Assembly (NCBI GenBank): GCA_002338125.1
Contig: DDHN01000008.1
Span: 113,094-176,152 of the forward strand
DNA length: 63,059 bases
Source of the DNA: Patescibacteria group bacterium UBA1875
GTDB lineage: Bacteria; Patescibacteriota; CPR2; UBA1875
Direction: 5' to 3'
Of this stretch, positions 10,978-46,341 are shown piece after piece. Within the stretch, counting starts at the first letter, position 1, and every line of letters begins with the position of its first letter. Both the position numbers and the translations under genes were made by a program. The notes below the pieces were generated by a model. It was given only the letters and a program-made list of their open reading frames with translations, was not told the origin of the DNA and searched no databases.

Positions 10978-11006
10978 TTGACTTATATGCAATATTTTGG
11001 TATATT
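10978..11006 (+). promoter_or_regulatory. Sigma70-type promoter of island 1
   Basis: TTGACT (10978-10983), a 17-nt spacer, then TATATT (11001-11006) with an upstream TG (extended -10). Confidence 0.6.
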
Positions 11007-11013
11007 ATAGCGC

Positions 11014-11055
11014 ATCCGCTTCGGTGGATTGAACAATTTTCGACCTGTTAGGTCG
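11014..11055 (+). promoter_or_regulatory. Island 1 5' leader with two short hairpins
   Basis: ATCCGC-UUCG-GTGGAT (11014-11029) and CGACC-TGTTA-GGTCG (11041-11055). An AAGGAG SD lies at 11083-11088. Confidence 0.5.
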
Positions 11056-11093
11056 TTTGAACATTGAAAACATACCTAGTCTAAGGAGATATC

Positions 11094-11306
11094 ATGCGTT
11101 TTGCACTTCTTCCGCTTCTAGCAGCATCGATCATGCTCTTGGTGGGTATTGTCTTGTGTACAGATTGGAGGCCAGTTTCAAGGCTATTCAAGTCTCTGTA
11201 TCAAGACATTACTAATCCTAACCCGCTTTTCCCGGGACCATTCACTCGGTTCACGGGTATCATGCTTGGAACAGACATCGGCGAAGAGTCCAAGAAAGGA
11301 AGGTGA
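11094..11306 (+). CDS. Island 1 ORF-a: 70-aa protein with an N-terminal signal/anchor helix
   Basis: An AAGGAG SD lies 5 nt upstream of the ATG. The N-terminus (MRFALLPLLAASIMLLVGIVLC) is hydrophobic. No family recognised. Confidence 0.55.
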   Translation: MRFALLPLLAASIMLLVGIVLCTDWRPVSRLFKSLYQDITNPNPLFPGPFTRFTGIMLGTDIGEESKKGR

Positions 11307-11382
11307 AGGCGATGTATTTGGGTCCGTAACATTTCCTCATCGTTTGCGACAGAAAGGAAAACAACGATGAGGGAGGGGCAAC

Positions 11383-11652
11383 ATGAAGGGTTCAAGGTTC
11401 GACCATCGGGGTTACGAGATTTATCGCAACCCAGTTCCGGTAGAAATACTGGAAGAGATCGAAGGTAAGTTGACTCCTAGGGAGACAACTGGCTACGAGT
11501 TCGTTGTCTATCATGACGGTCTGCCGCTAGACATCAATGTCACGGCTCTTAATCGTCATCTTGGCCTCAAAGAGGTCAAGGAGTGGATCGATAGGCAGTT
11601 TGCAACACAAGCCGCAGCCGAGACCGACATTGTGTCGGCTCAGTCGAACTAG
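11383..11652 (+). CDS. Island 1 ORF-b: 89-aa soluble hypothetical protein
   Basis: A GAGGGAGGGG SD (11369-11378) precedes the ATG. No family recognised. Confidence 0.55.
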   Translation: MKGSRFDHRGYEIYRNPVPVEILEEIEGKLTPRETTGYEFVVYHDGLPLDINVTALNRHLGLKEVKEWIDRQFATQAAAETDIVSAQSN

Positions 11653-11661
11653 GGGAGGCAG

Positions 11662-12123
11662 ATGATGAAAACGGAAGAGAAGGTCGCATTTCTTGCCGAG
11701 ATGATCGAGGACTTCAATGCCCACGGTTGTCCAGGAAAGGCAGATACCGACAAGGGTCTCCACTATGCAAGGGAGATCATCGACTCGCTCCATCATTGCG
11801 AAAAGCCTGAGGAAGGGGCCGTATATCTCATTACGGCTCTTAGCTTCAAGGCCATTGTCGCGATGGAGGCAGGCTGCCATGCTGATGCGGCAGACTGTCC
11901 TTGTTTCGAAAGCTGCTACGTGTGGACACACGCAGCAGCTGCCAACCCATCCCGATCAATAGTCTCTCTGGTTAGCAAAGGGAGACGCTGCGAGATGGGT
12001 AATGTCGAGTGTTCACTGAACCTCGACAACCCTGGCCGAAGGCATCGTGAGAGCGAATCGCTTCTGGATGTTGATAAGGCCATGGCCGAGAGCTATGTTC
12101 CCGAATCCGGGGCGGCGTGGTAG
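11662..12123 (+). CDS. Island 1 ORF-c: 153-aa Cys/His-rich hypothetical protein
   Basis: A GGGGAGG SD (11652-11658) overlaps the ORF-b stop. It has 8 Cys, including HGC, HHC, GCH and DCPCFESC. Confidence 0.6.
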   Translation: MMKTEEKVAFLAEMIEDFNAHGCPGKADTDKGLHYAREIIDSLHHCEKPEEGAVYLITALSFKAIVAMEAGCHADAADCPCFESCYVWTHAAAANPSRSIVSLVSKGRRCEMGNVECSLNLDNPGRRHRESESLLDVDKAMAESYVPESGAAW

Positions 12124-12125
12124 CG

Positions 12126-12359
12126 ATGAACATAGAAATCATCGCCATGTGTATGGGTCGTGAGGGAACGGTTCTGCACGAGCCGTACACAGCAGCGAAT
12201 GTTGCTGCTGGTATCGTCCGTTCCGGTGGACGTGTCCTCGGAGTCGTCAAGTCAAACGTCGAAGGGGAGCCGATATTCCGGAAAACGGTAGAAATCGGTT
12301 CACCAGAAGAGATCAAGGAGTTCATTCTCGCTTTCTCAGGAGCTGAGGAGGGGGCATGA
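12126..12359 (+). CDS. Island 1 ORF-d: 77-aa hypothetical protein
   Basis: The ATG lies 2 nt after the ORF-c stop (an alternative GTG is at 12117). The stop overlaps the ORF-e start (ATGA). Confidence 0.5.
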   Translation: MNIEIIAMCMGREGTVLHEPYTAANVAAGIVRSGGRVLGVVKSNVEGEPIFRKTVEIGSPEEIKEFILAFSGAEEGA

Positions 12360-12565
12360 AGTGGTTCTGGGGTATCGTCTCCTTGGCAGTAATAACCTTA
12401 ATCGGTTTCGCTGCTGTTTGGGACCCAACCATTAGAGAGGCCGTAAGCGTTATTGCCTACTTGGCAATGGTTGCTGGCTTCTGGTGGATGGGGGTGAAAT
12501 TTGTTGGTCTTTGCGACGAAGTGAAGGCTAACAGTTTCGCAGCTTTCCATCGTGACAAGGACTAG
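12356..12565 (+). CDS. Island 1 ORF-e: 69-aa two-TM membrane protein
   Basis: A GAGGAGGGGG SD lies immediately upstream. There are two hydrophobic helices (FWGIVSLAVITLIGFAAVW and AVSVIAYLAMVAGFWWMGVKFVGL). Confidence 0.6.
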   Translation: MKWFWGIVSLAVITLIGFAAVWDPTIREAVSVIAYLAMVAGFWWMGVKFVGLCDEVKANSFAAFHRDKD

Positions 12566-12820
12566 GTGTTATCAGGCTCTGTTTCATACAGAGACAGCAC
12601 CTACTAGCAGATTGACTTCCGGGTAATACCTGGAGGCCGGATGCAGAGGGGGTTTTAGAGTTGTGAGCCCCTGCATCCGGCCGGTACTGGTCGTGCCAAC
12701 CCGTTCTCACAACGGGTACGACACTAAGGTACCGGTCGGTCTCCGAGTTAAAAACTCGGTCTGCGTCTAGGGATGACAGTTTTGCTTTGCGCGGCAAGGC
12801 TGTTATCCCTGATCATTCTA
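12566..12820 (+). ncRNA. Hairpin-dense non-coding 3' region of island 1 (candidate structured RNA)
   Basis: Six consecutive stable helices: 12577-12593, 12616-12636, 12636-12681, 12681-12735 (three stacked segments), 12743-12759 and 12769-12810. There is no plausible ORF with an SD. Confidence 0.45.
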
Positions 12821-12856
12821 CGGGCCCCAGTCTTCGGACGGGGCCCGTTCACTTTT
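12821..12856 (+). terminator. Island 1 rho-independent terminator
   Basis: CGGGCCCC-A-GTC-UUCG-GAC-GGGGCCCG (11-bp stem, UUCG loop) followed by TTCACTTTT. Confidence 0.75.
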
Positions 12857-12862
12857 AAAATA

Positions 12863-12891
12863 TTGACGAAAGTTTGTTTTTTTGATAATAT
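12863..12891 (+). promoter_or_regulatory. rplS promoter
   Basis: TTGACG, a 17-nt spacer, then TAATAT. The ATG is only about 12 nt downstream of the -10 and has no SD. Confidence 0.5.
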
Positions 12892-28227: not shown

Positions 28228-28256
28228 TTGACAAAAATTAAATTTATGATATTATA
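28228..28256 (+). promoter_or_regulatory. Sigma70-type promoter of island 2
   Basis: TTGACA (28228-28233), then TGaTATTAT (-10 at 28250-28255), starting 6 nt after the recG stop. Confidence 0.6.
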
Positions 28257-28265
28257 GCGATATTA

Positions 28266-28302
28266 TCCGGTGCTAATACCGGAAGTCTCGATTGTGGTCG
28301 AG
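28266..28302 (+). promoter_or_regulatory. Island 2 5' leader with two short hairpins
   Basis: TCCGGT-GCTAAT-ACCGGA (28266-28283) and CTCGA-TTGTGG-TCGAG (28287-28302). An AAGGAAG SD lies at 28311-28317. Confidence 0.5.
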
Positions 28303-28325
28303 TTGACATTAAGGAAGTGATTTGA

Positions 28326-29258
28326 GTGTCTAGTGAGGGCAACGTCTTTGTTGTACGTCTCGACTTCCAGCTCAGCCCTTCGATCGACTTGTTCGATCTT
28401 GAAGACGGAGAAGGAAGGGTCTTCCTGAATCATGCCCCTGAGGTCATTAAAGAGAAGGGAGAATTTGTCCTCGTGCAATCAGAGGGACAATTTGGTTTCT
28501 CCCTTATCCCAGCTGCACCGATGAAAGCTGGGTACAAGAGGGTTGATTCCATCAAGAAGCTTGTGGAGTTGGTGCTTGAGTTTGGGCTGTGTAAGCCCTT
28601 CGTCCCGCGTGGCTACCATGGAATTGTCGAAAAGGGTTTGAGCGATCAGCTCCATAAGGCCTACAACGAGTGCCGATTCGGTTCCTACGTCAAGCTTCCT
28701 GATTCAAGTGTGGTGTTGGTGGTCAGCGATGAAGCTCTTGACCCAGGAACGTTTGTTGAGGCTCGGCGAGCCTGGAACAACGTTCTCGTTGTTGGGCGAG
28801 CTGAGTTCGAGAGCCGGCAACCATTCCGACACGAGAACTGGGCTAGCTTTGTAAGCGCTCTGATGGCTAGCTACCCTCAGCAAGTCAAAGGGCACTTGAC
28901 TCCTCGTAAGCCGCCAAGGAGGATTCAGGGAACTTGGGCCGGTCCCGACCTCGACTACATTAACCGTCGGGGGCAAGCCTCAACTCGTTTGCTTGTTGAC
29001 GGACAAGAAGAAGGGTCTGTCGTTACCGTGTATTTCACGCGTTGCGACAAAAACCCTTCCGTTCCGATCAGAACTGGTGAGGCTGTTGAGGTTTGGTATG
29101 CCGGTAAAGGTAACATTGCGGTTATCCCTTACGCTGGCCGAACCACTCAAGTCCTGCGACCAAGAGAGCTAGTCAGAGAGCTGGGAGTGCAAAGAGACAG
29201 TCTCGATGAGAGAAAACTCTCATCATACGACAACGTTCGCGTGGTCTACACTTCCTGA
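28326..29258 (+). CDS. Island 2 ORF: 310-aa soluble hypothetical protein
   Basis: The GTG start lies 8 nt downstream of AAGGAAG. There is no TM helix or signal peptide. The protein is beta-rich and Arg-rich, and no family is recognised. Confidence 0.65.
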   Translation: MSSEGNVFVVRLDFQLSPSIDLFDLEDGEGRVFLNHAPEVIKEKGEFVLVQSEGQFGFSLIPAAPMKAGYKRVDSIKKLVELVLEFGLCKPFVPRGYHGIVEKGLSDQLHKAYNECRFGSYVKLPDSSVVLVVSDEALDPGTFVEARRAWNNVLVVGRAEFESRQPFRHENWASFVSALMASYPQQVKGHLTPRKPPRRIQGTWAGPDLDYINRRGQASTRLLVDGQEEGSVVTVYFTRCDKNPSVPIRTGEAVEVWYAGKGNIAVIPYAGRTTQVLRPRELVRELGVQRDSLDERKLSSYDNVRVVYTS

Positions 29259-29271
29259 AGTAGTCCCTTGT

Positions 29272-29300
29272 AACGGGCGCCTATCGAGGCGCCCGTTTTC
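29272..29300 (+). terminator. Island 2 rho-independent terminator
   Basis: AACGGGCGCC-TATCGA-GGCGCCCGTT followed by TTC and a T-rich tract. Confidence 0.75.
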
Positions 29301-29339: not shown

Positions 29340-29885
29340 ATGCATATCGGAACAGGACAATTTGAAGGCAAGAAGATAAAAGATTCTCATGATGGCATCC
29401 CACTGTCAACTCGGACTTTAACTATTAAGGAATCAATATTTGAAATAATCGGAATTAGAATTCAGGAATCGGCTGTGCTTGATATCAACGACCGGAATGG
29501 AATGTATGGGATAGAGGCTATTTCCAAAGGAGCGGCCGTAGTTCAGTTTCTGAATATTCATAATGAAGAGAAGAATATAATTAAAGAAAATTTAAAAATG
29601 GTTGAACTTAATCCAGCTGACTTTGTGATTAATGAAAAACCGGAAAAATTTTTTTCAAAGAAAACTGATTTCAGATTTGATGTAATATTTTTCAGGGCTG
29701 TCGATAATCATTGTCTTTTGTTACTCGATAGAGTATTAGCAATGCAAACATCAAATGGCATAACTGTACTTTTCTACCCTCAAAACAAAGAATGCCAGTT
29801 TACCGGAGCCCCTGATGGCTACCAGGTGATTGATACTAGGGATGTTGAGACGGAAAGGGTAGTTGTATTACTTAAAGAAAAATAA
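29340..29885 (+). CDS. RsmD-like methyltransferase fold protein with degenerate catalytic motifs
   Basis: It is colinear with RsmD (GQFEGKKIK...TRTLTIKESIFEII...GIEAISKGAA...FDVIFF). However, FAGSG is replaced by NDRNG and DPPF by FRAV. Confidence 0.6.
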   Translation: MHIGTGQFEGKKIKDSHDGIPLSTRTLTIKESIFEIIGIRIQESAVLDINDRNGMYGIEAISKGAAVVQFLNIHNEEKNIIKENLKMVELNPADFVINEKPEKFFSKKTDFRFDVIFFRAVDNHCLLLLDRVLAMQTSNGITVLFYPQNKECQFTGAPDGYQVIDTRDVETERVVVLLKEK

Positions 29886-40780: not shown

Positions 40781-42871
40781 ATGGCTAGAGATTATAGTTT
40801 GGAAAAAACAAGGAATATTGGCATAATTGCGCATATAGATGCTGGTAAAACAACCGTGACCGAAGGAATTTTGTATCTAACTGGTAGGACTCATAAAATT
40901 GGAGAAGTCCATGAAGGTGAGGCTACAATGGACTGGATGGAACAAGAGCGGGAGCGGGGAATCACCATTACTTCGGCTGCGACAACTTGTTTTTGGCAAG
41001 ACAATCGAATAAATATTATCGACACCCCTGGGCACGTAGATTTTACTGTTGAGGTTGAACGGTCTCTTAGAGTTCTTGACGGAGCTGTTACTATTTTTGA
41101 TGGAAAAATGGGAGTTGAGCCTCAGTCAGAAACTGTTTGGCGTCAGGCCGATAAGTATCATGTCCCTAGAATGTGTTTTATTAACAAAATCAATCAAACT
41201 GGTGGCGATTTCTATAAATCTCTAGACTCAATAAAAGAGCGATTGTCAAAAAACGCCTACCCAATTCAAGTACCAATTGGTGTGGAGCAAAGCATTAACG
41301 GTGTTGTCGATTTGGTGGAATTGAAATCATATACATATAATGAATATCATGACAAAAAACTAGTTGTAGGCGATGTCCCTGAGGATATGAAGGAAAAATG
41401 CGAAAAACTTCGAGAAGAACTTTTAGAGAAAGCGGTAGAAGCAGATGAATCTTTGATGGAAAAATATCTTGGAGGTGAAGATTTAACTATTGAAGAATTC
41501 AAGACTGCTATAAGGAAGAGTGTTCTTGCTGGTGACTTTTTCCCGGTTCTTGGTGGAGATGGACGAGGGGTGATTGTCGAAACTCTCCTTGATGCTATTG
41601 TCGATTACCTACCAACTCCACTTGATGTCCCTCCTGTGACTGGTCTTGACCCTAAAACTGGCGAAGAGATAGTAAGAAAGGCTAGTGACGAAGAACCTTT
41701 CGCTGCATTAGCATTTAAGATAGCTACAGACCCGTTCGTTGGAAAGTTAGCATTTTTTAGGGTCTACTCTGGTGTAATTAAAGCCGGCTCTTATGTATAT
41801 AACTCTACTACGGGTGATAAAGAACGTTTAGGCCGAATAGTTAGGCTTCACGCTAATCATCGTGAAGATGTAGACGAAGTTTATGCCGGAGAAATTGCTG
41901 CTGCTGTTGGCTTGAAGGGAACAACAACAGGTGATACTTTGTGTGACCCATCTAATCCAATTGTTTTAGAGGCAATTACTTTTCCTGACCCAGTTATAAC
42001 TATTGCCATTGAGCCAAAGACAAAAGCAGACCAGGAAAAGATGGGTATTGCTTTGGCTAAACTAGCCGAAGAAGATCCGACCTTTGTAGTAAAATCAGAT
42101 GAAGAAACAGGGCAGACCGTAATTTCTGGTATGGGTGAGCTTCATCTAGAAATTATCGTCGATAGAATGAAGCGAGAATTTAAGGTAGAAGCCAATATCG
42201 GTAAACCGCAAGTTGCCTACAAAGAAACGATTAAAGAAAAAGCCCAGGCTGAAGGTAAATATATTAAACAGTCCGGAGGAAGAGGTCAGTATGGACATGT
42301 TTGGCTTGAGCTTGAGCCACTAGAAGCTGGTTCTGGTTTTGAGTTTGTTGATAAGATTGTTGGTGGTGCTGTTCCGAAAGAATTCATAGGGCCAACCCAA
42401 CAAGGTATTGTTGAGGCAATGGCCAATGGTGTAATTGCCGGATATCCGGTAGTTGATGTTCGAGCAACTTTGTATGATGGCTCTTTTCACGATGTTGACT
42501 CATCAGAAATGGCCTTTAAGATTGCCGGGAGCATGGCATTTCAGTCAGGTTTCAAAAAAGCAAAACCGATTATTCTTGAACCTGTTATGAAGGTCGAAGT
42601 ACTTACGCCCGAAGAGTTTATGGGTGATGTTATGGGAGATTTGAATTCAAAGAGGGGTAAGATTCAAAATATGGAAGATAGAGCCCAAACAAAAGTAATT
42701 GATGCGATGGTACCTTTATCGGAAATGTTTGGTTATGCTACTCAGCTACGCTCTATAACTCAGGGTCGAGCCTCATATGTTATGGAATTTGATCATTATG
42801 AAGAGGTTCCTGGTAATATAGCGGAAGAGATAAAAGCGGCTCGGGGAACAAAAGAAGCAACCGAAGAATAG
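40781..42871 (+). CDS. fusA: Elongation factor G
   Basis: G motifs AHIDAGKTT and DTPGH. 696 aa. Confidence 0.95.
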
Positions 42872-42875
42872 AATA

Positions 42876-42908
42876 AATAATGAGGCCAAGTCAGGCCTCA
42901 TTATTTTA
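42876..42908 (+). terminator. Terminator after fusA
   Basis: 12-bp stem AATAATGAGGCC/GGCCTCATTATT with a 6-nt loop, followed by TTT. Confidence 0.7.
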
Positions 42909-42933
42909 CGAAGCTGTTAATTTAGGCTATAAT
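42905..42933 (+). promoter_or_regulatory. Sigma70-type promoter of island 3
   Basis: TTTACG, a 17-nt spacer, then TATAAT (42928-42933). Confidence 0.5.
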
Positions 42934-42976
42934 ATTGATAACGTTAATACGAGAAACTTGAAGGCAGGTGAGGAAG

Positions 42977-43129
42977 ATGCTTTCGAGAACAAGAGAAAGA
43001 GTAGCAAACATTATCGCATGCTCTTTGCTCTCGCTCTTTTTCCTCATCCTTAAACAATTAGTTCTGTCAGCTGTTACCGGCTTGATTGTCTTTTGTGATA
43101 GCTTTTCAAAGCCAACGTGGAAGGAGTGA
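42977..43129 (+). CDS. Island 3 ORF-a: 50-aa hydrophobic peptide (absent from the ORF track)
   Basis: GGTGAGGAAG SD. MLSRTRERVANIIACSLLSLFFLILKQLVLSAVTGLIVFCDSFSKPTWKE, with 1-2 TM segments. Confidence 0.5.
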   Translation: MLSRTRERVANIIACSLLSLFFLILKQLVLSAVTGLIVFCDSFSKPTWKE

Positions 43130-43131
43130 TT

Positions 43132-43278
43132 ATGGGTCTCCAAATGCTTGGTATTATTCTAATGATTGTCTTTATGGCTATCGTGGGTGGTTTGTTGACA
43201 AGAGTCTACGTCAAACGCCTTGATGAACAGGCCGCAATGTACCTCGATCATGAGGACCAGATCATCTCTGAGCTTTGA
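43132..43278 (+). CDS. Island 3 ORF-b: 48-aa single-TM peptide (absent from the ORF track)
   Basis: The AAGGAG SD overlaps the ORF-a stop and the ATG lies 2 nt after that stop. MGLQMLGIILMIVFMAIVGGLL is followed by an acidic tail. Confidence 0.5.
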   Translation: MGLQMLGIILMIVFMAIVGGLLTRVYVKRLDEQAAMYLDHEDQIISEL

Positions 43279-43290
43279 GGGGGGAGTGTG

Positions 43291-43611
43291 ATGACCAGAA
43301 AGAAAGCTGACAGGCTGTGCGCTAAAGGCTTGGCAGCTGACCCAGACTATTGCTTGTATGATGAAGGAAGTGTCTGCCCGTGTGAACGGTACTACCAGAA
43401 ACTGACAAGGCCTTCGCTTGGTCGATTACTTCTTTCAACTATTACGTTGCAAAAGGATGAAACCGCGTCGTGTGTTGGTTGTTTGACGGAATCTCAGACA
43501 GCGTGTCCGTCATGTGTCAACAGTTCGGCTCACGAACGGTTGCTGGCAGCCTGTCCCCCGATCCGAGGAGGTTCTGCCGATGAAGGAATTCATTGCTTCG
43601 GGTGGCGGTAG
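43291..43611 (+). CDS. Island 3 ORF-c: 106-aa Cys-rich protein
   Basis: A GAGGGGGGAG SD precedes ATG 43291 (a GTG lies at 43288). It has 10 Cys, including VCPC, CVGC and CPSC. Confidence 0.6.
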   Translation: MTRKKADRLCAKGLAADPDYCLYDEGSVCPCERYYQKLTRPSLGRLLLSTITLQKDETASCVGCLTESQTACPSCVNSSAHERLLAACPPIRGGSADEGIHCFGWR

Positions 43612-43693
43612 CTACCTTCTTGTTGGTATCACGGTCCTTGTTTGTCTGACTGGTGGGGCGATTCATTACAATCGAATTCGTCCTCGGCGCTAA
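43580..43693 (+). CDS. Island 3 ORF-d: 37-aa single-TM peptide (absent from the ORF track)
   Basis: GAGGAGG SD at 43565-43571. It overlaps the ORF-c end by 32 nt. MKEFIASGGGSYLLVGITVLVCLTGGAIHYNRIRPRR. Confidence 0.45.
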   Translation: MKEFIASGGGSYLLVGITVLVCLTGGAIHYNRIRPRR

Positions 43694-43734
43694 TTGTCAA
43701 AGGAGGAGAGAGTGGCCTGTGTAGCACCTTAGTT

Positions 43735-43776
43735 GGCCCCGGTTACAATATTGTAATCCGGGGCCTTCTTTATATT
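43735..43776 (+). terminator. Island 3 rho-independent terminator
   Basis: GGCCCCGG-TTACAA..TTGTAA-(T)-CCGGGGCC extended hairpin followed by TTCTTTATATT. Confidence 0.75.
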
Positions 43777-43786
43777 CAAAAAACCC

Positions 43787-43815
43787 TTGCATATTTAAAA
43801 ATTATTAGGTAGAAT
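43787..43815 (+). promoter_or_regulatory. tuf promoter
   Basis: TTGCAT, a 17-nt spacer, then TAGAAT, followed by a leader of about 100 nt with an AAAGGAGGA SD. Confidence 0.5.
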
Positions 43816-43916
43816 ACGTCATGTAACTCAAATAAATGAGTCAAAGCCACTTTTGTGGATAAGTTTTATTGTCTAAATGCGGGAAAATTACAATTACCTT
43901 AAAAGGAGGATTACAG

Positions 43917-45095
43917 ATGACACAATTTGATCGTTCCAAACCGCACGTTAACGTTGGTACAATCGGCCACGTTGACCATGGTAAGACTACTCTTACCGCT
44001 GCTATTACCAAAGTCCTTTCAGAAGATGGTAAGGCAGATTTTACAGCTTTTGACCAAATCGACAAGGCACCTGAGGAGAGAGAGCGAGGAATCACAATCG
44101 CTACTGCGCACGTTGAGTATGAATCTGATAAACGTCACTATGCTCATGTCGATTGTCCAGGACACGCAGACTATGTTAAAAACATGATTACTGGAGCAGC
44201 TCAAATGGACGGAGCAATACTAGTGGTTGCTGCTACTGATGGGCCTATGCCCCAGACCAGAGAGCACTTGCTTCTTGCTAAGCAGGTTAACGTTCCAGCT
44301 GTTGTTGTTTTTATGAATAAAGTAGACATGGTTCAAGATGAAGAAATGCTTGACTTGGTAGAGATGGAAATTAGAGAACTTCTTACTAAATATGAATTTG
44401 ATGGCGATAACGCTAAGATAATTCGTGGCTCTGCTCTTAAAGCGCTTGAAGGGGATGACAAGTACAAAGAGAGCATTAAAGAACTTATTACTGCTCTTGA
44501 TGAAGCTATCCCAGAGCCAAAGAGAGATATCGATAAGCCTTTCAAGATGCCAGTTGAAGATGTCTTTTCCATTAAAGGCCGAGGTACGGTAGCTACTGGT
44601 AGAATTGAGCAAGGTGTAATTAAAGTTAACGAAGAAGTAGAGATTGTTGGTATTAAAGATACTCGAAAGACTGTTGTTACCGGGGTTGAAATGTTTAAAA
44701 AGACTCTTGATCAAGGTCAAGCTGGTGATAATGCCGGATTACTTCTTCGAGGCATCGAAAAAGATGATATTGAACGTGGTATGGTTCTTGCTAAACCTGG
44801 TTCAATCACACCTCATACTGAATTTGAAGCCAAGATATATGTTCTTACCAAAGAAGAAGGCGGACGTCATACCCCATTCTTCAAAGGCTACAAACCTCAA
44901 TTCTATATCGGCACAACCGACGTTACTGGTGAAGTAATATTACCAGAAGGAACTGAAATGGTAATGCCTGGTGATAGTGTGGAAGTAACTGTTAAGCTAC
45001 TTCAACCAATCGCCATGGACGAAGGAACAAGATTTGCCATCCGTGAAGGTGGCCGAACGGTTGGAGCTGGTGCCGTCTCTAAAATCGTCAAATAA
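43917..45095 (+). CDS. tuf: Elongation factor Tu
   Basis: [26 protein letters not shown] and DCPGH. The ATG at 43917 follows the AAAGGAGGA SD. The track ORF starts earlier, at 43869. Confidence 0.95.
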
Positions 45096-45576: not shown

Positions 45577-46341
45577 TTGCATCTTCACACAATAGCAAGT
45601 GACGGTTTACATACGGCGCTGGCTGTTTTGAGCTATGCCAAATTAATTGGGGTTACGGTTGTGTCTATTACCGATCATAATGAAATATCGGCTAGCCTTA
45701 GAGGGGAAAAAATTGCCAAAGCTTTAAATCTTATCTATTACCCAGGAGTAGAGCTGATGTTCCATGTAAAGGGGAGAGTTTACGAGCTATTGGCCTATTT
45801 CAATGATGGCCAGTCTCTTCGTAACTTTTACAAAAAGTATCGTTTCACAAACGGTTTTATGCCGCATTACAAAAATGTCGACGAAGTTGTGAGCTTAGTT
45901 AAGGAATACAAAGGGGTAGTCGTGTCGCCACATCCTTTTGGTCGAAAGGGTATTTATCGAAACTTGAAAAATGCTAATGTAATGGTTGATGGGGTGGAAA
46001 TACTGAATGCTTTTACTGAGGAAAAGCGGAATGGAAAAGCAGCTATACATAAGACTAAGAACGATAACGCTAAGACATTAGGTTCGGCAGATATGCATTT
46101 TTTCCTCCAAGATATCGGTAGAGTGTATACAAAAATTGAATCTAATCAGAAGATAACCAAAGAGCTTGTTTGGAAATGTCTATTGGGGATAAAGGACGAA
46201 ATTAAGTTTATACCGATTGGTAATTCATTCAGTAAGAGAAAGATACTTTTCCAAAAGCCTCTATGTGCTGTTGTTTACGTTATTAATTGGCCTTGGCTAT
46301 ATATTAAATATCGGTTTCGAAAACAATATAAAAATTGTTGA
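45577..46341 (+). CDS. PHP-domain metal-dependent phosphoesterase inserted between rpsJ and rplC
   Basis: LHLHTIASDG...ITDHNE...SPHPF are PHP His/Asp motifs. The apparent start is TTG, and the frame is open upstream to 45535 with no ATG or GTG. Confidence 0.7.
   Translation: MHLHTIASDGLHTALAVLSYAKLIGVTVVSITDHNEISASLRGEKIAKALNLIYYPGVELMFHVKGRVYELLAYFNDGQSLRNFYKKYRFTNGFMPHYKNVDEVVSLVKEYKGVVVSPHPFGRKGIYRNLKNANVMVDGVEILNAFTEEKRNGKAAIHKTKNDNAKTLGSADMHFFLQDIGRVYTKIESNQKITKELVWKCLLGIKDEIKFIPIGNSFSKRKILFQKPLCAVVYVINWPWLYIKYRFRKQYKNC

Follow-up and report, generated by a model that had tools for sequence, protein, structure and literature searches.

A putative micro-protein operon in the fusA-tuf gap of a Patescibacteria clade

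The window analysed here is a 63,059-nt stretch of the genome of Patescibacteria group bacterium UBA1875 (contig DDHN01000008.1), and all positions are given in its own numbering. Its subject is the gap between fusA (EF-G) and tuf (EF-Tu), in which four small open reading frames (ORFs A-D) with a predicted promoter and terminator form a cassette, referred to as island 3. We consider it probable that this cassette is a clade-specific, old, fast-evolving and dispensable micro-protein operon, situated between two units, rpsL-rpsG-fusA and tuf, that were already separate. Homologues of B and C occur at the same locus in other species, and the tuf promoter is found even where the gap is empty. The locus is a lineage-specific, uncharacterised accessory operon at a variable inter-unit gap and does not breach a universal rule. 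The analysis defines B and C as small-protein families that had not been annotated before; gene callers miss them systematically, and they are bound to a single genomic slot in the clade and evolve several-fold faster than their neighbours. The points of greatest note are a persistent excess of GC at third codon positions (GC3), the strict position beside translation-factor genes and the failure of annotation pipelines to report the operon.

Architecture and coding evidence of the cassette

The gene order in the window is rpoC-rpsL-rpsG-fusA-gap-tuf-rpsJ, followed by a PHP-like gene and rplC. The canonical str order rpsL-rpsG-fusA-tuf is present, and fusA and tuf are separated by a 1045-bp gap containing two predicted terminators and the four ORFs. 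The hairpin behind fusA folded with -18.9 kcal/mol (z = -6.1), and none of 200 shuffled sequences was as stable. The cassette promoter was the top promoter-like site in a consensus scan of positions 42400-44200, and analogous promoters stand right behind the fusA terminator in the relatives. At the other end, the arms of the cassette terminator (GGCCCCGG at 43735-43742 and CCGGGGCC at 43758-43765) are followed by the U-rich UUCUUUAUAUUC; the structure folded with -24.8 kcal/mol (z = -6.3), and the relatives carry an equivalent GC hairpin immediately 5' of the tuf promoter. A preliminary description of this DNA had listed a terminator with a 12-bp stem at the end of fusA, a TTTACG-N17-TATAAT promoter, a GC hairpin terminator and a subsequent TTGCAT-N17-TAGAAT promoter of tuf. 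All of these elements were recovered, with a 13-bp stem in the first, and the sequence also supports its view of the gap as an autonomous, terminator-flanked unit of accessory small genes.

All four ORFs lie on the + strand, each with a Shine-Dalgarno (SD) sequence. The SD of ORF B (GGAAGGAG) overlaps the 3' end of A, that of ORF C overlaps the B stop codon, and ORF D begins 32 nt inside ORF C. Protein profiles built from relatives, with the window sequence excluded, were run against the 1275 six-frame segments of the window. ORF B was found at E = 1.3e-6 (profile from four relatives) and ORF C at E = 1.3e-14, each as the top match of its profile. The C family is defined by seven invariant cysteines (C10, C29, C31, C61, C64, C72 and C75), an eighth being present at a variable position; the two CxxC knuckles (C61, C64, C72 and C75) were invariant in five to seven sequences. 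Further shared motifs were MTxRAA, KPSL..RL and (T/F)QKDxxAxC(V/I)GC. The proportion of non-synonymous differences between C homologues (pN, 0.30-0.51) was lower than that of synonymous differences (pS, 0.63-0.90), and the same held for B; synonymous sites are saturated, so these values are read as pN < pS and not as a dN/dS ratio. The CVGC motif is written in different synonymous codons between genomes (tgt gtt ggt tgt versus TGC GTC GGT TGC). On these comparisons of sequence, B and C are real protein-coding genes. ORF D is supported as a gene by its position and architecture, the only features by which it is equated with the D ORFs of the relatives, and ORF A is only predicted.

When 1.84 billion representatives were scanned in full with HMMER, ORF C had a single match (P0121, E = 2.6e-4). 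A word-indexed search of 5.8 billion proteins gave nothing for C at E <= 1, because the ORF is not called in public annotations. For A-D and their homologues nothing above threshold was found in Pfam, PHROGs, PADLOC or NCBIfam, and a PDB profile search for C produced chance matches only (E about 1). Rfam contained no family at the gathering threshold, the permissive threshold yielding sub-threshold noise only. A PADLOC match of ORF A to PDC-M53B (E = 0.0024, 15.8 bits), which lay in a hydrophobic stretch, was judged compositional.

ORFs A, B and D each encode one strong hydrophobic segment. The basic residues after the helix would, under the positive-inside rule, place the tails of B and D in the cytoplasm. 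C most likely binds zinc through its CxxC knuckles, as far as its motifs indicate. It resembles membrane-tethered C4 zinc-ribbon or knuckle proteins in its invariant CxxC-x7..19-CxxC pair and in the fusion to an N-terminal membrane helix seen in two relatives. Unlike known C4 zinc ribbons, however, it lacks a Pfam, NCBIfam or PDB match, and its N-terminal cysteine cluster (C10, C29-x-C31) has no obvious counterpart.

An EF-G 100% identical to that encoded upstream of the cassette is present in NCBI, JGI and Logan assemblies. At 77-79% identity, the closest named relatives come from candidate division CPR2, Howlettbacteria and 'Patescibacteria group' bacteria, which places the organism in the Patescibacteria (CPR).

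Table 1. Features of the fusA-tuf region (window coordinates)
Feature	Position	Strand	Description
fusA (EF-G), upstream flank	40781..42871	+	696-aa ORF; Pfam EF-G domains precomputed for identical protein
fusA intrinsic-terminator hairpin	42875..42906	+	perfect 13-bp stem, 6-nt loop, U-rich 3' side; inverted repeat I3
Predicted cassette promoter	42905..42933	+	TTTACG-N17-TATAAT; 10/12 consensus matches
ORF A	42977..43129	+	50 aa; basic N-terminus, long hydrophobic segment; least certain gene
ORF B	43132..43278	+	48-aa single-pass membrane peptide (predicted); acidic tail, motif MYxDHEDQ
ORF C	43291..43611	+	106-aa soluble Cys-rich protein (predicted); CVGC-x7-CxxC
ORF D	43580..43693	+	37-aa single-pass membrane peptide (predicted); basic tail RIRPRR
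Predicted cassette intrinsic terminator	43735..43777	+	hairpin GGCCCCGG...CCGGGGCC and U-tract; inverted repeat I5
Ancestral tuf promoter	43775..43815	+	A-tract, TTGCAT 43787-43792, N17, TAGAAT 43810-43815; conserved in clade
tuf leader motif	43855..43877	+	GTGGATAAGTTTTATTGTCTAAA, preceded by short hairpin; conserved across clade
tuf (EF-Tu), downstream flank	43917..45095	+	ORF, ATG at 43917

Relatives, composition and the tuf promoter

The contents of the gap were compared among related genomes and contigs, denoted below by L labels; within the window clade, fusA is 80-89% identical. In L084 (89%) the gap holds an 847-bp GC-rich cassette encoding a membrane helix fused to a CVGC-x7-CDSC ribbon, together with a two-helix membrane protein. 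L088 and L089 (88%) carry an insertion sequence (IS) transposase on the opposite strand, and in L085 and L087 (86-87%) the gap is empty (273 bp). GC-rich cassettes of 0.86-1.2 kb with small membrane and Cys-rich ORFs were found in L090, L092, L093 and L098 (81-83%). A B-C-D operon is present in L094, L099, L100 and L101 (80-85% over the C-terminal part of fusA, the gene not being visible on L101). The outgroup L004 (75%) has a gap of 168 bp and no cassette.

In L094, P0121 lies directly 3' of the fusA end, with a 48-aa membrane peptide before it; on its 3' side follow a small membrane peptide with a basic tail, the GC hairpin and the tuf promoter. A profile search added P0124, P0125 and P0126, each flanked by a B-like gene on its 5' side and a D-like ORF on its 3' side, the D-like ORF of L101 having been spotted by eye and not being called there. 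Where the contigs of these three proteins extend far enough, fusA stands upstream (L099 and L100), and the L099 contig also shows the tuf promoter on the downstream side. Homologues of B and C at this locus were thus obtained from at least four other species, at 30-38% identity, and the relatives with B-C-D belong to a different subclade from the window. The fusions of helix and zinc ribbon also matched window C (L084, E = 0.045; L093, E = 1.8e-5). An all-against-all comparison connected the clade cassettes by weak but consistent homologies, and in a fusA neighbour-joining tree a cassette appeared in all three subclades and B-C-D in two. The cassette is not private to this genome, since homologues of B and C fill the same slot in L094, L099, L100 and L101 and appear in diverged or fused form in L084 and L093. 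Uniform homologues of backbone composition in the relatives had been named as one observation that would speak against an island; many relatives do carry homologues, but not uniformly, and their composition is never backbone-like.

The cassettes of the higher-GC subclade (L094, L099, L100 and L101) display two features that are absent from the window version. Their promoter regions contain the operator-like repeated AATTGGTAATTG / CAATTACCAATT (L094 ~560-720, L100 ~270-470, L101 1-100 and L099 ~1230-1310), and a conserved hairpin of the 5' untranslated region, CTCACACAAA...GTGyTyGTGAGCACA, precedes the GGGGGAGGGG SD.

The preliminary description had inferred that the insertion split tuf off into a transcription unit of its own. 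The comparison with relatives corrects this inference. The block AAAAAACyC-TTGCAn-N17-TAGAAT was kept in every clade member examined (11 or more genomes), including the empty-gap L085 and L087, and is also found in the outgroup L004; the window copy scores under the threshold of the consensus scan, yet is phylogenetically conserved. The leader motif GTGGATAAGTTTTATTGTC and its short hairpin are conserved across the clade whatever the gap holds, and are degenerate in L004. Because promoter and leader persist in empty-gap genomes and in the outgroup, the tuf promoter must predate the cassette and be independent of it, and on this comparative evidence it is ancestral. The leader motif GTGGATAAGTTTTATTGTCTAAA may itself be a regulatory element for tuf. 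In E. coli, separate tuf promoters are located within or after fusA. The clade is similar in that tuf transcription would not rely on the rpsL promoter alone, and differs in that the tuf promoter stands in the intergenic gap, behind a terminator, and is conserved together with a leader motif. The related proposal that the accessory genes exploit a very highly expressed site is weakened as well, since predicted terminators insulate the cassette on both sides and its expression would rest on its own promoter.

The genome represented by the window is low in GC (about 37-40%). Over positions 43100-43800 the GC content was 0.46-0.54 versus about 0.38-0.41 in the flanks, and the cassette ORFs had a GC3 of 0.42-0.51 versus 0.27-0.36 in ten host genes. 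Synonymous codon choice differed likewise between cassette and host (TTA for Leu, 3% versus 26%; AAG for Lys, 64% versus 31%). The atypical composition ascribed to the island was thus borne out in GC, GC3 and codon use; its description as four GC-rich small ORFs applies to B-C-D but not to A. The promoter and ORF A (GC 0.41) are near backbone composition, so that the GC-rich core consists of B-C-D. The GC3 of the cassette exceeded that of fusA by 0.13-0.36 in all eight genomes measured, with a backbone GC3 of 0.30 and of 0.51 alike. This excess is persistent and locus-specific, and is unusual for a fast-evolving gene set.

On a broader scale, 55 genomes in which both fusA and tuf were found had a median gap of 119 bp. 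Gaps of 450-3560 bp came nearly all from Patescibacteria among the sampled genomes, and many of these long gaps contain a conserved 100-140-aa gene with sub-threshold Phd/YefM similarity, accompanied by variable cargo. The near-universal fusA-tuf linkage invoked in the preliminary description is not supported, given that Patescibacteria gaps are often occupied and that in several sampled genomes the 4 kb next to fusA contain no tuf.

Two other types of occupant were observed in this gap. The IS-type transposase of L088 (4119-5093) and L089 (2335-3309), on the minus strand in both, contains rve, rve_3 and HTH_32 domains and stands next to an EF-G 88% identical to that of the window; the element indicates that the gap tolerates insertions and is unrelated to the cassette. 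In many other Patescibacteria (L005, L007, L008, L012, L019, L020, L021 and L027) a conserved gene of 90-140 aa (MSKQLKQVINLxKKTGDRIIVFD...) lies just upstream of tuf. It showed sub-threshold similarity to Phd/YefM antitoxins (E = 9e-6, 25.8 bits versus a cut-off of 29.8), and is often joined by pilin-like, kinase-like or methyltransferase-like cargo.

Competing explanations and a possible role

Read most simply, the comparative data would mean that the cassette was gained once, at the root of the clade, and that rapid divergence, fusion, remodelling, loss (L085 and L087) and IS invasion (L088) came later. By its homologies and distribution, the cassette is old in the clade, fast-evolving and dispensable. 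Several observations weigh against this account or against the operon as a whole. The window has B-C-D in common with a different subclade, its nearer relatives having other versions, and the persistent GC3 excess is unexplained by simple vertical descent, repeated import from a GC-richer pool fitting it too. ORF A had no homologue in the all-against-all comparison and is known only from the window genome, and ORF D was not significantly recovered by the profile from relatives among the six-frame segments of the window. Public gene callers missed C and D in the JGI contig and all island ORFs in the Logan contig. AlphaFold2 models of C reached a predicted local distance difference test (pLDDT) score of 37 with a two-sequence alignment and 43 with five sequences, and this low confidence means that the zinc-ribbon fold is suggested by the sequence motifs only. 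Within-clade transfer by recombination through the conserved flanks is possible.

The leading alternative, proposed in the preliminary description, is that a moron-like island with its own promoter and terminator was acquired horizontally in recent times, landed in this genome and split the operon; we regard this as unlikely. It would account for GC, GC3 and codon usage unlike those of the host, for the patchiness among the closest relatives (an empty gap in L085 and L087, different content in L084) and for the two further GC-rich cassettes of the same style in the window. It also agrees with the build of phage morons, which are independent promoter-gene-terminator units of deviating GC (Cumby et al. 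2012, PMC3594210). The cassette shares with them a predicted promoter and terminator of its own, the location between two conserved genes, a GC content off that of its neighbours, dispensability and small accessory proteins. However, it is chromosomal, placed between the core translation genes fusA and tuf with no phage genes or phage relatives, and its homologues occur only at the same locus in related genomes, with nothing to show horizontal dissemination. The low identity of the B and C homologues at that locus argues for long residence and not for recent arrival, the tuf promoter is older than the cassette, and in every relative, even at 50% GC, the backbone is poorer in GC than the cassette.

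The hallmarks of a mobile genomic island (integrase or transposase, tRNA or att site, border repeats) are likewise absent from the cassette. Its borders showed no direct or terminal inverted repeats and no target-site duplications, and neither an integrase, transposase or other mobility gene in the window region nor a tRNA at the cassette was detected. In the empty-site comparison, the gap was empty in L085 and L087 and held homologous or related cassettes in L084, L090, L092, L093, L094, L098, L099 and L100. The cassette also differs from an integron cassette, as the window region has no integrase, the promoter is its own and the 3' palindrome with its U-tract behaves as a terminator. A blastn comparison of the whole gap with phages and plasmids gave no match, and scans of viral contigs with ORF C, an island-2 protein and the C-family alignment yielded no relatives. 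A metagenome scan with ORF C returned nothing, in a collection that does not contain the source contig, and one with the tuf leader motif returned three loci, two of them useful.

A second alternative holds that the small hydrophobic peptides are membrane toxins of a type I toxin-antitoxin system, or holins, and that the cassette is an addiction or lysis module. With a single membrane helix each and a charged tail, B (48 aa) and D (37 aa) do fall within the size range of type I toxins (hydrophobic, <60 aa), and the cassette can be lost and turns over fast. Weak holin matches pointed the same way, ORF A matching a PHROG holin at E = 0.11 and an island-1 ORF matching Pfam Phage_holin_2 at E = 0.046, but every family match was below threshold. 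The SDs are strong and the promoter is near-consensus and constitutive-looking, no endolysin or antitoxin partner was found, and no signal of an antisense RNA emerged from the sequence scan, in which minus-strand promoter-like matches were at chance level and no small RNA of Rfam matched. A complex would better match the conserved, co-translated Cys-rich C and the fusions of helix and ribbon, and we consider a toxin or holin module improbable.

GC-rich intergenic regions of AT-rich genomes are often structured non-coding RNAs, but it is highly improbable that the GC-rich segment is one and that its ORFs are incidental. Gene callers do skip most of the region, the whole transcript had a minimum free energy z of -3.8 (with just 20 shuffles and the terminator hairpin counted in), and island 1 of the same window ends in a very strongly structured non-coding tail. 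However, no Rfam family reaches threshold, and the amino-acid motifs are conserved in differing synonymous codons with pN < pS. Every ORF has its SD, with coupling of start and stop codons; the membrane helices stand out clearly, and B and C were significantly recovered by protein profiles.

An assembly chimera, with GC-rich DNA of another organism joined into the contig, can be dismissed in spite of the abrupt jump in composition and of a Logan contig (L003) that stops within the cassette terminator hairpin: homologous cassettes occupy the same slot in relatives, and the fusA-island-tuf stretch is identical in three independent assemblies of different samples (JGI 3300003536, Logan SRR5324208 and Logan SRR1367222), with zero differences inside the island, so that both junctions, as the preliminary description had them, are real and not an assembly artefact. 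That L003 ends inside the palindrome (window 43742) was probably caused by the assembler at the inverted repeat.

Under the preferred model of an old accessory operon between separate units, the fusA hairpin would stop str transcription, and a sigma-70-type promoter would drive a polycistronic mRNA some 0.8 kb long. Its four ORFs would be translated in coupled fashion and in roughly equal amounts, coupling being suggested by the overlapping stop, SD and start sequences here and by ATGA overlaps in the relatives. Some 20 nt upstream of the ancestral tuf promoter, the strong GC hairpin would then halt transcription. B and D, and perhaps also A, may insert in the membrane with their C-terminal tails in the cytoplasm, and C may be cytoplasmic and probably has two Cys4 metal sites. 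Because a B-like helix is fused to a C-type ribbon in L084 and L093, we infer a joint action of B and C at the membrane, presumably as a membrane-tethered zinc-ribbon complex. Rapid divergence, remodelling and losses suggest a non-essential accessory function, possibly at the envelope, in phage exclusion, host contact or a stress response.

The source of the GC3 excess is a matter of speculation, the candidates being repeated supply from a GC-richer pool and GC-biased gene conversion at a recombination hot spot between very conserved genes. A broader reading, which we put forward as a long shot, would combine these ideas. The fusA-tuf gap would be a dedicated hypervariable cassette site, in which homologous recombination through the ultra-conserved flanks swaps, fuses and removes small membrane and zinc-ribbon modules, a high GC3 being kept by GC-biased conversion or by a GC-rich mobile pool. 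B-C-D would then be a new membrane-tethered zinc-ribbon system, for instance in phage exclusion or in contact between episymbiont and host, and the same process would apply to islands 1 and 2 and to the cassettes in the rpsJ-rplC gap of relatives. If the hot-spot or gene-conversion idea were true, the locus would offer a tractable natural case of cassette turnover beside the most conserved genes of a reduced genome.

An accessory operon of this kind has partial parallels. In the rpoBC-str-S10 cluster, genes such as tusDCB and bfd-bfr have been inserted between operons (Brandis 2021, PMC8046335). The cassette is comparable in that accessory genes lie in an inter-unit gap of a conserved cluster and are then inherited by a clade; unlike those insertions, which are placed between canonical operons and encode known enzymes, it is located inside the canonical str operon, between fusA and tuf, and encodes uncharacterised micro-proteins. 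'Dark matter islands' of fast-evolving small genes are described for archaea by Makarova et al. (2014, PMC4158269). They share with the cassette a narrow distribution and fast-evolving small genes without family assignment, here coding for membrane and Cys-rich proteins; in contrast to those larger archaeal islands, the cassette is a fixed-position operon of three to four genes in a clade of Patescibacteria, and its GC3 excess is persistent.

Other variable slots in the window

The window contains two further GC-rich cassettes between core genes on the + strand, island 1 at 10978-12880 (dnaE-rplS) and island 2 at 28230-29300 (between recG and a 181-aa ORF at 29340-29885), with a GC content of 0.48-0.56 and a GC3 of 0.48-0.59. 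Both begin with a near-consensus promoter (TTGACT/TTGACA-N17-TATATT/TATTAT) followed by ATAGCG, and both end in a GC hairpin directly before a new promoter of the downstream host gene. When the promoter motif shared by the two islands, TAT[AT]TTATAGCG, was searched with two mismatches allowed, only the island-1 site matched, and the motif was rejected as a repeated element. The ORFs of islands 1 and 2 (70, 89, 153, 80 and 69 aa; 310 aa) had no Pfam or PHROG match. Island 3 showed no similarity to islands 1 and 2 and has no paralogs elsewhere in the window, and none of the fusA-tuf cassettes of the clade resembled islands 1 and 2 in the all-against-all comparison.

The non-coding tail of island 1 in the dnaE-rplS gap (12566-12860, + strand) forms a GC-rich multi-stem fold of -149.5 kcal/mol (z = -9.6, 200 shuffles) and had no Rfam match at E <= 0.1. 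It is a candidate for a novel structured RNA or a compound terminator.

Downstream of tuf, a 254-aa PHP-domain-like gene (45577-46341, + strand; Pfam PHP, E = 5e-4, below threshold) separates rpsJ from rplC. It is conserved in relatives at backbone composition. Since several relatives add GC-rich small ORFs to it, the rpsJ-rplC gap constitutes a second slot of variable content within the ribosomal gene cluster.

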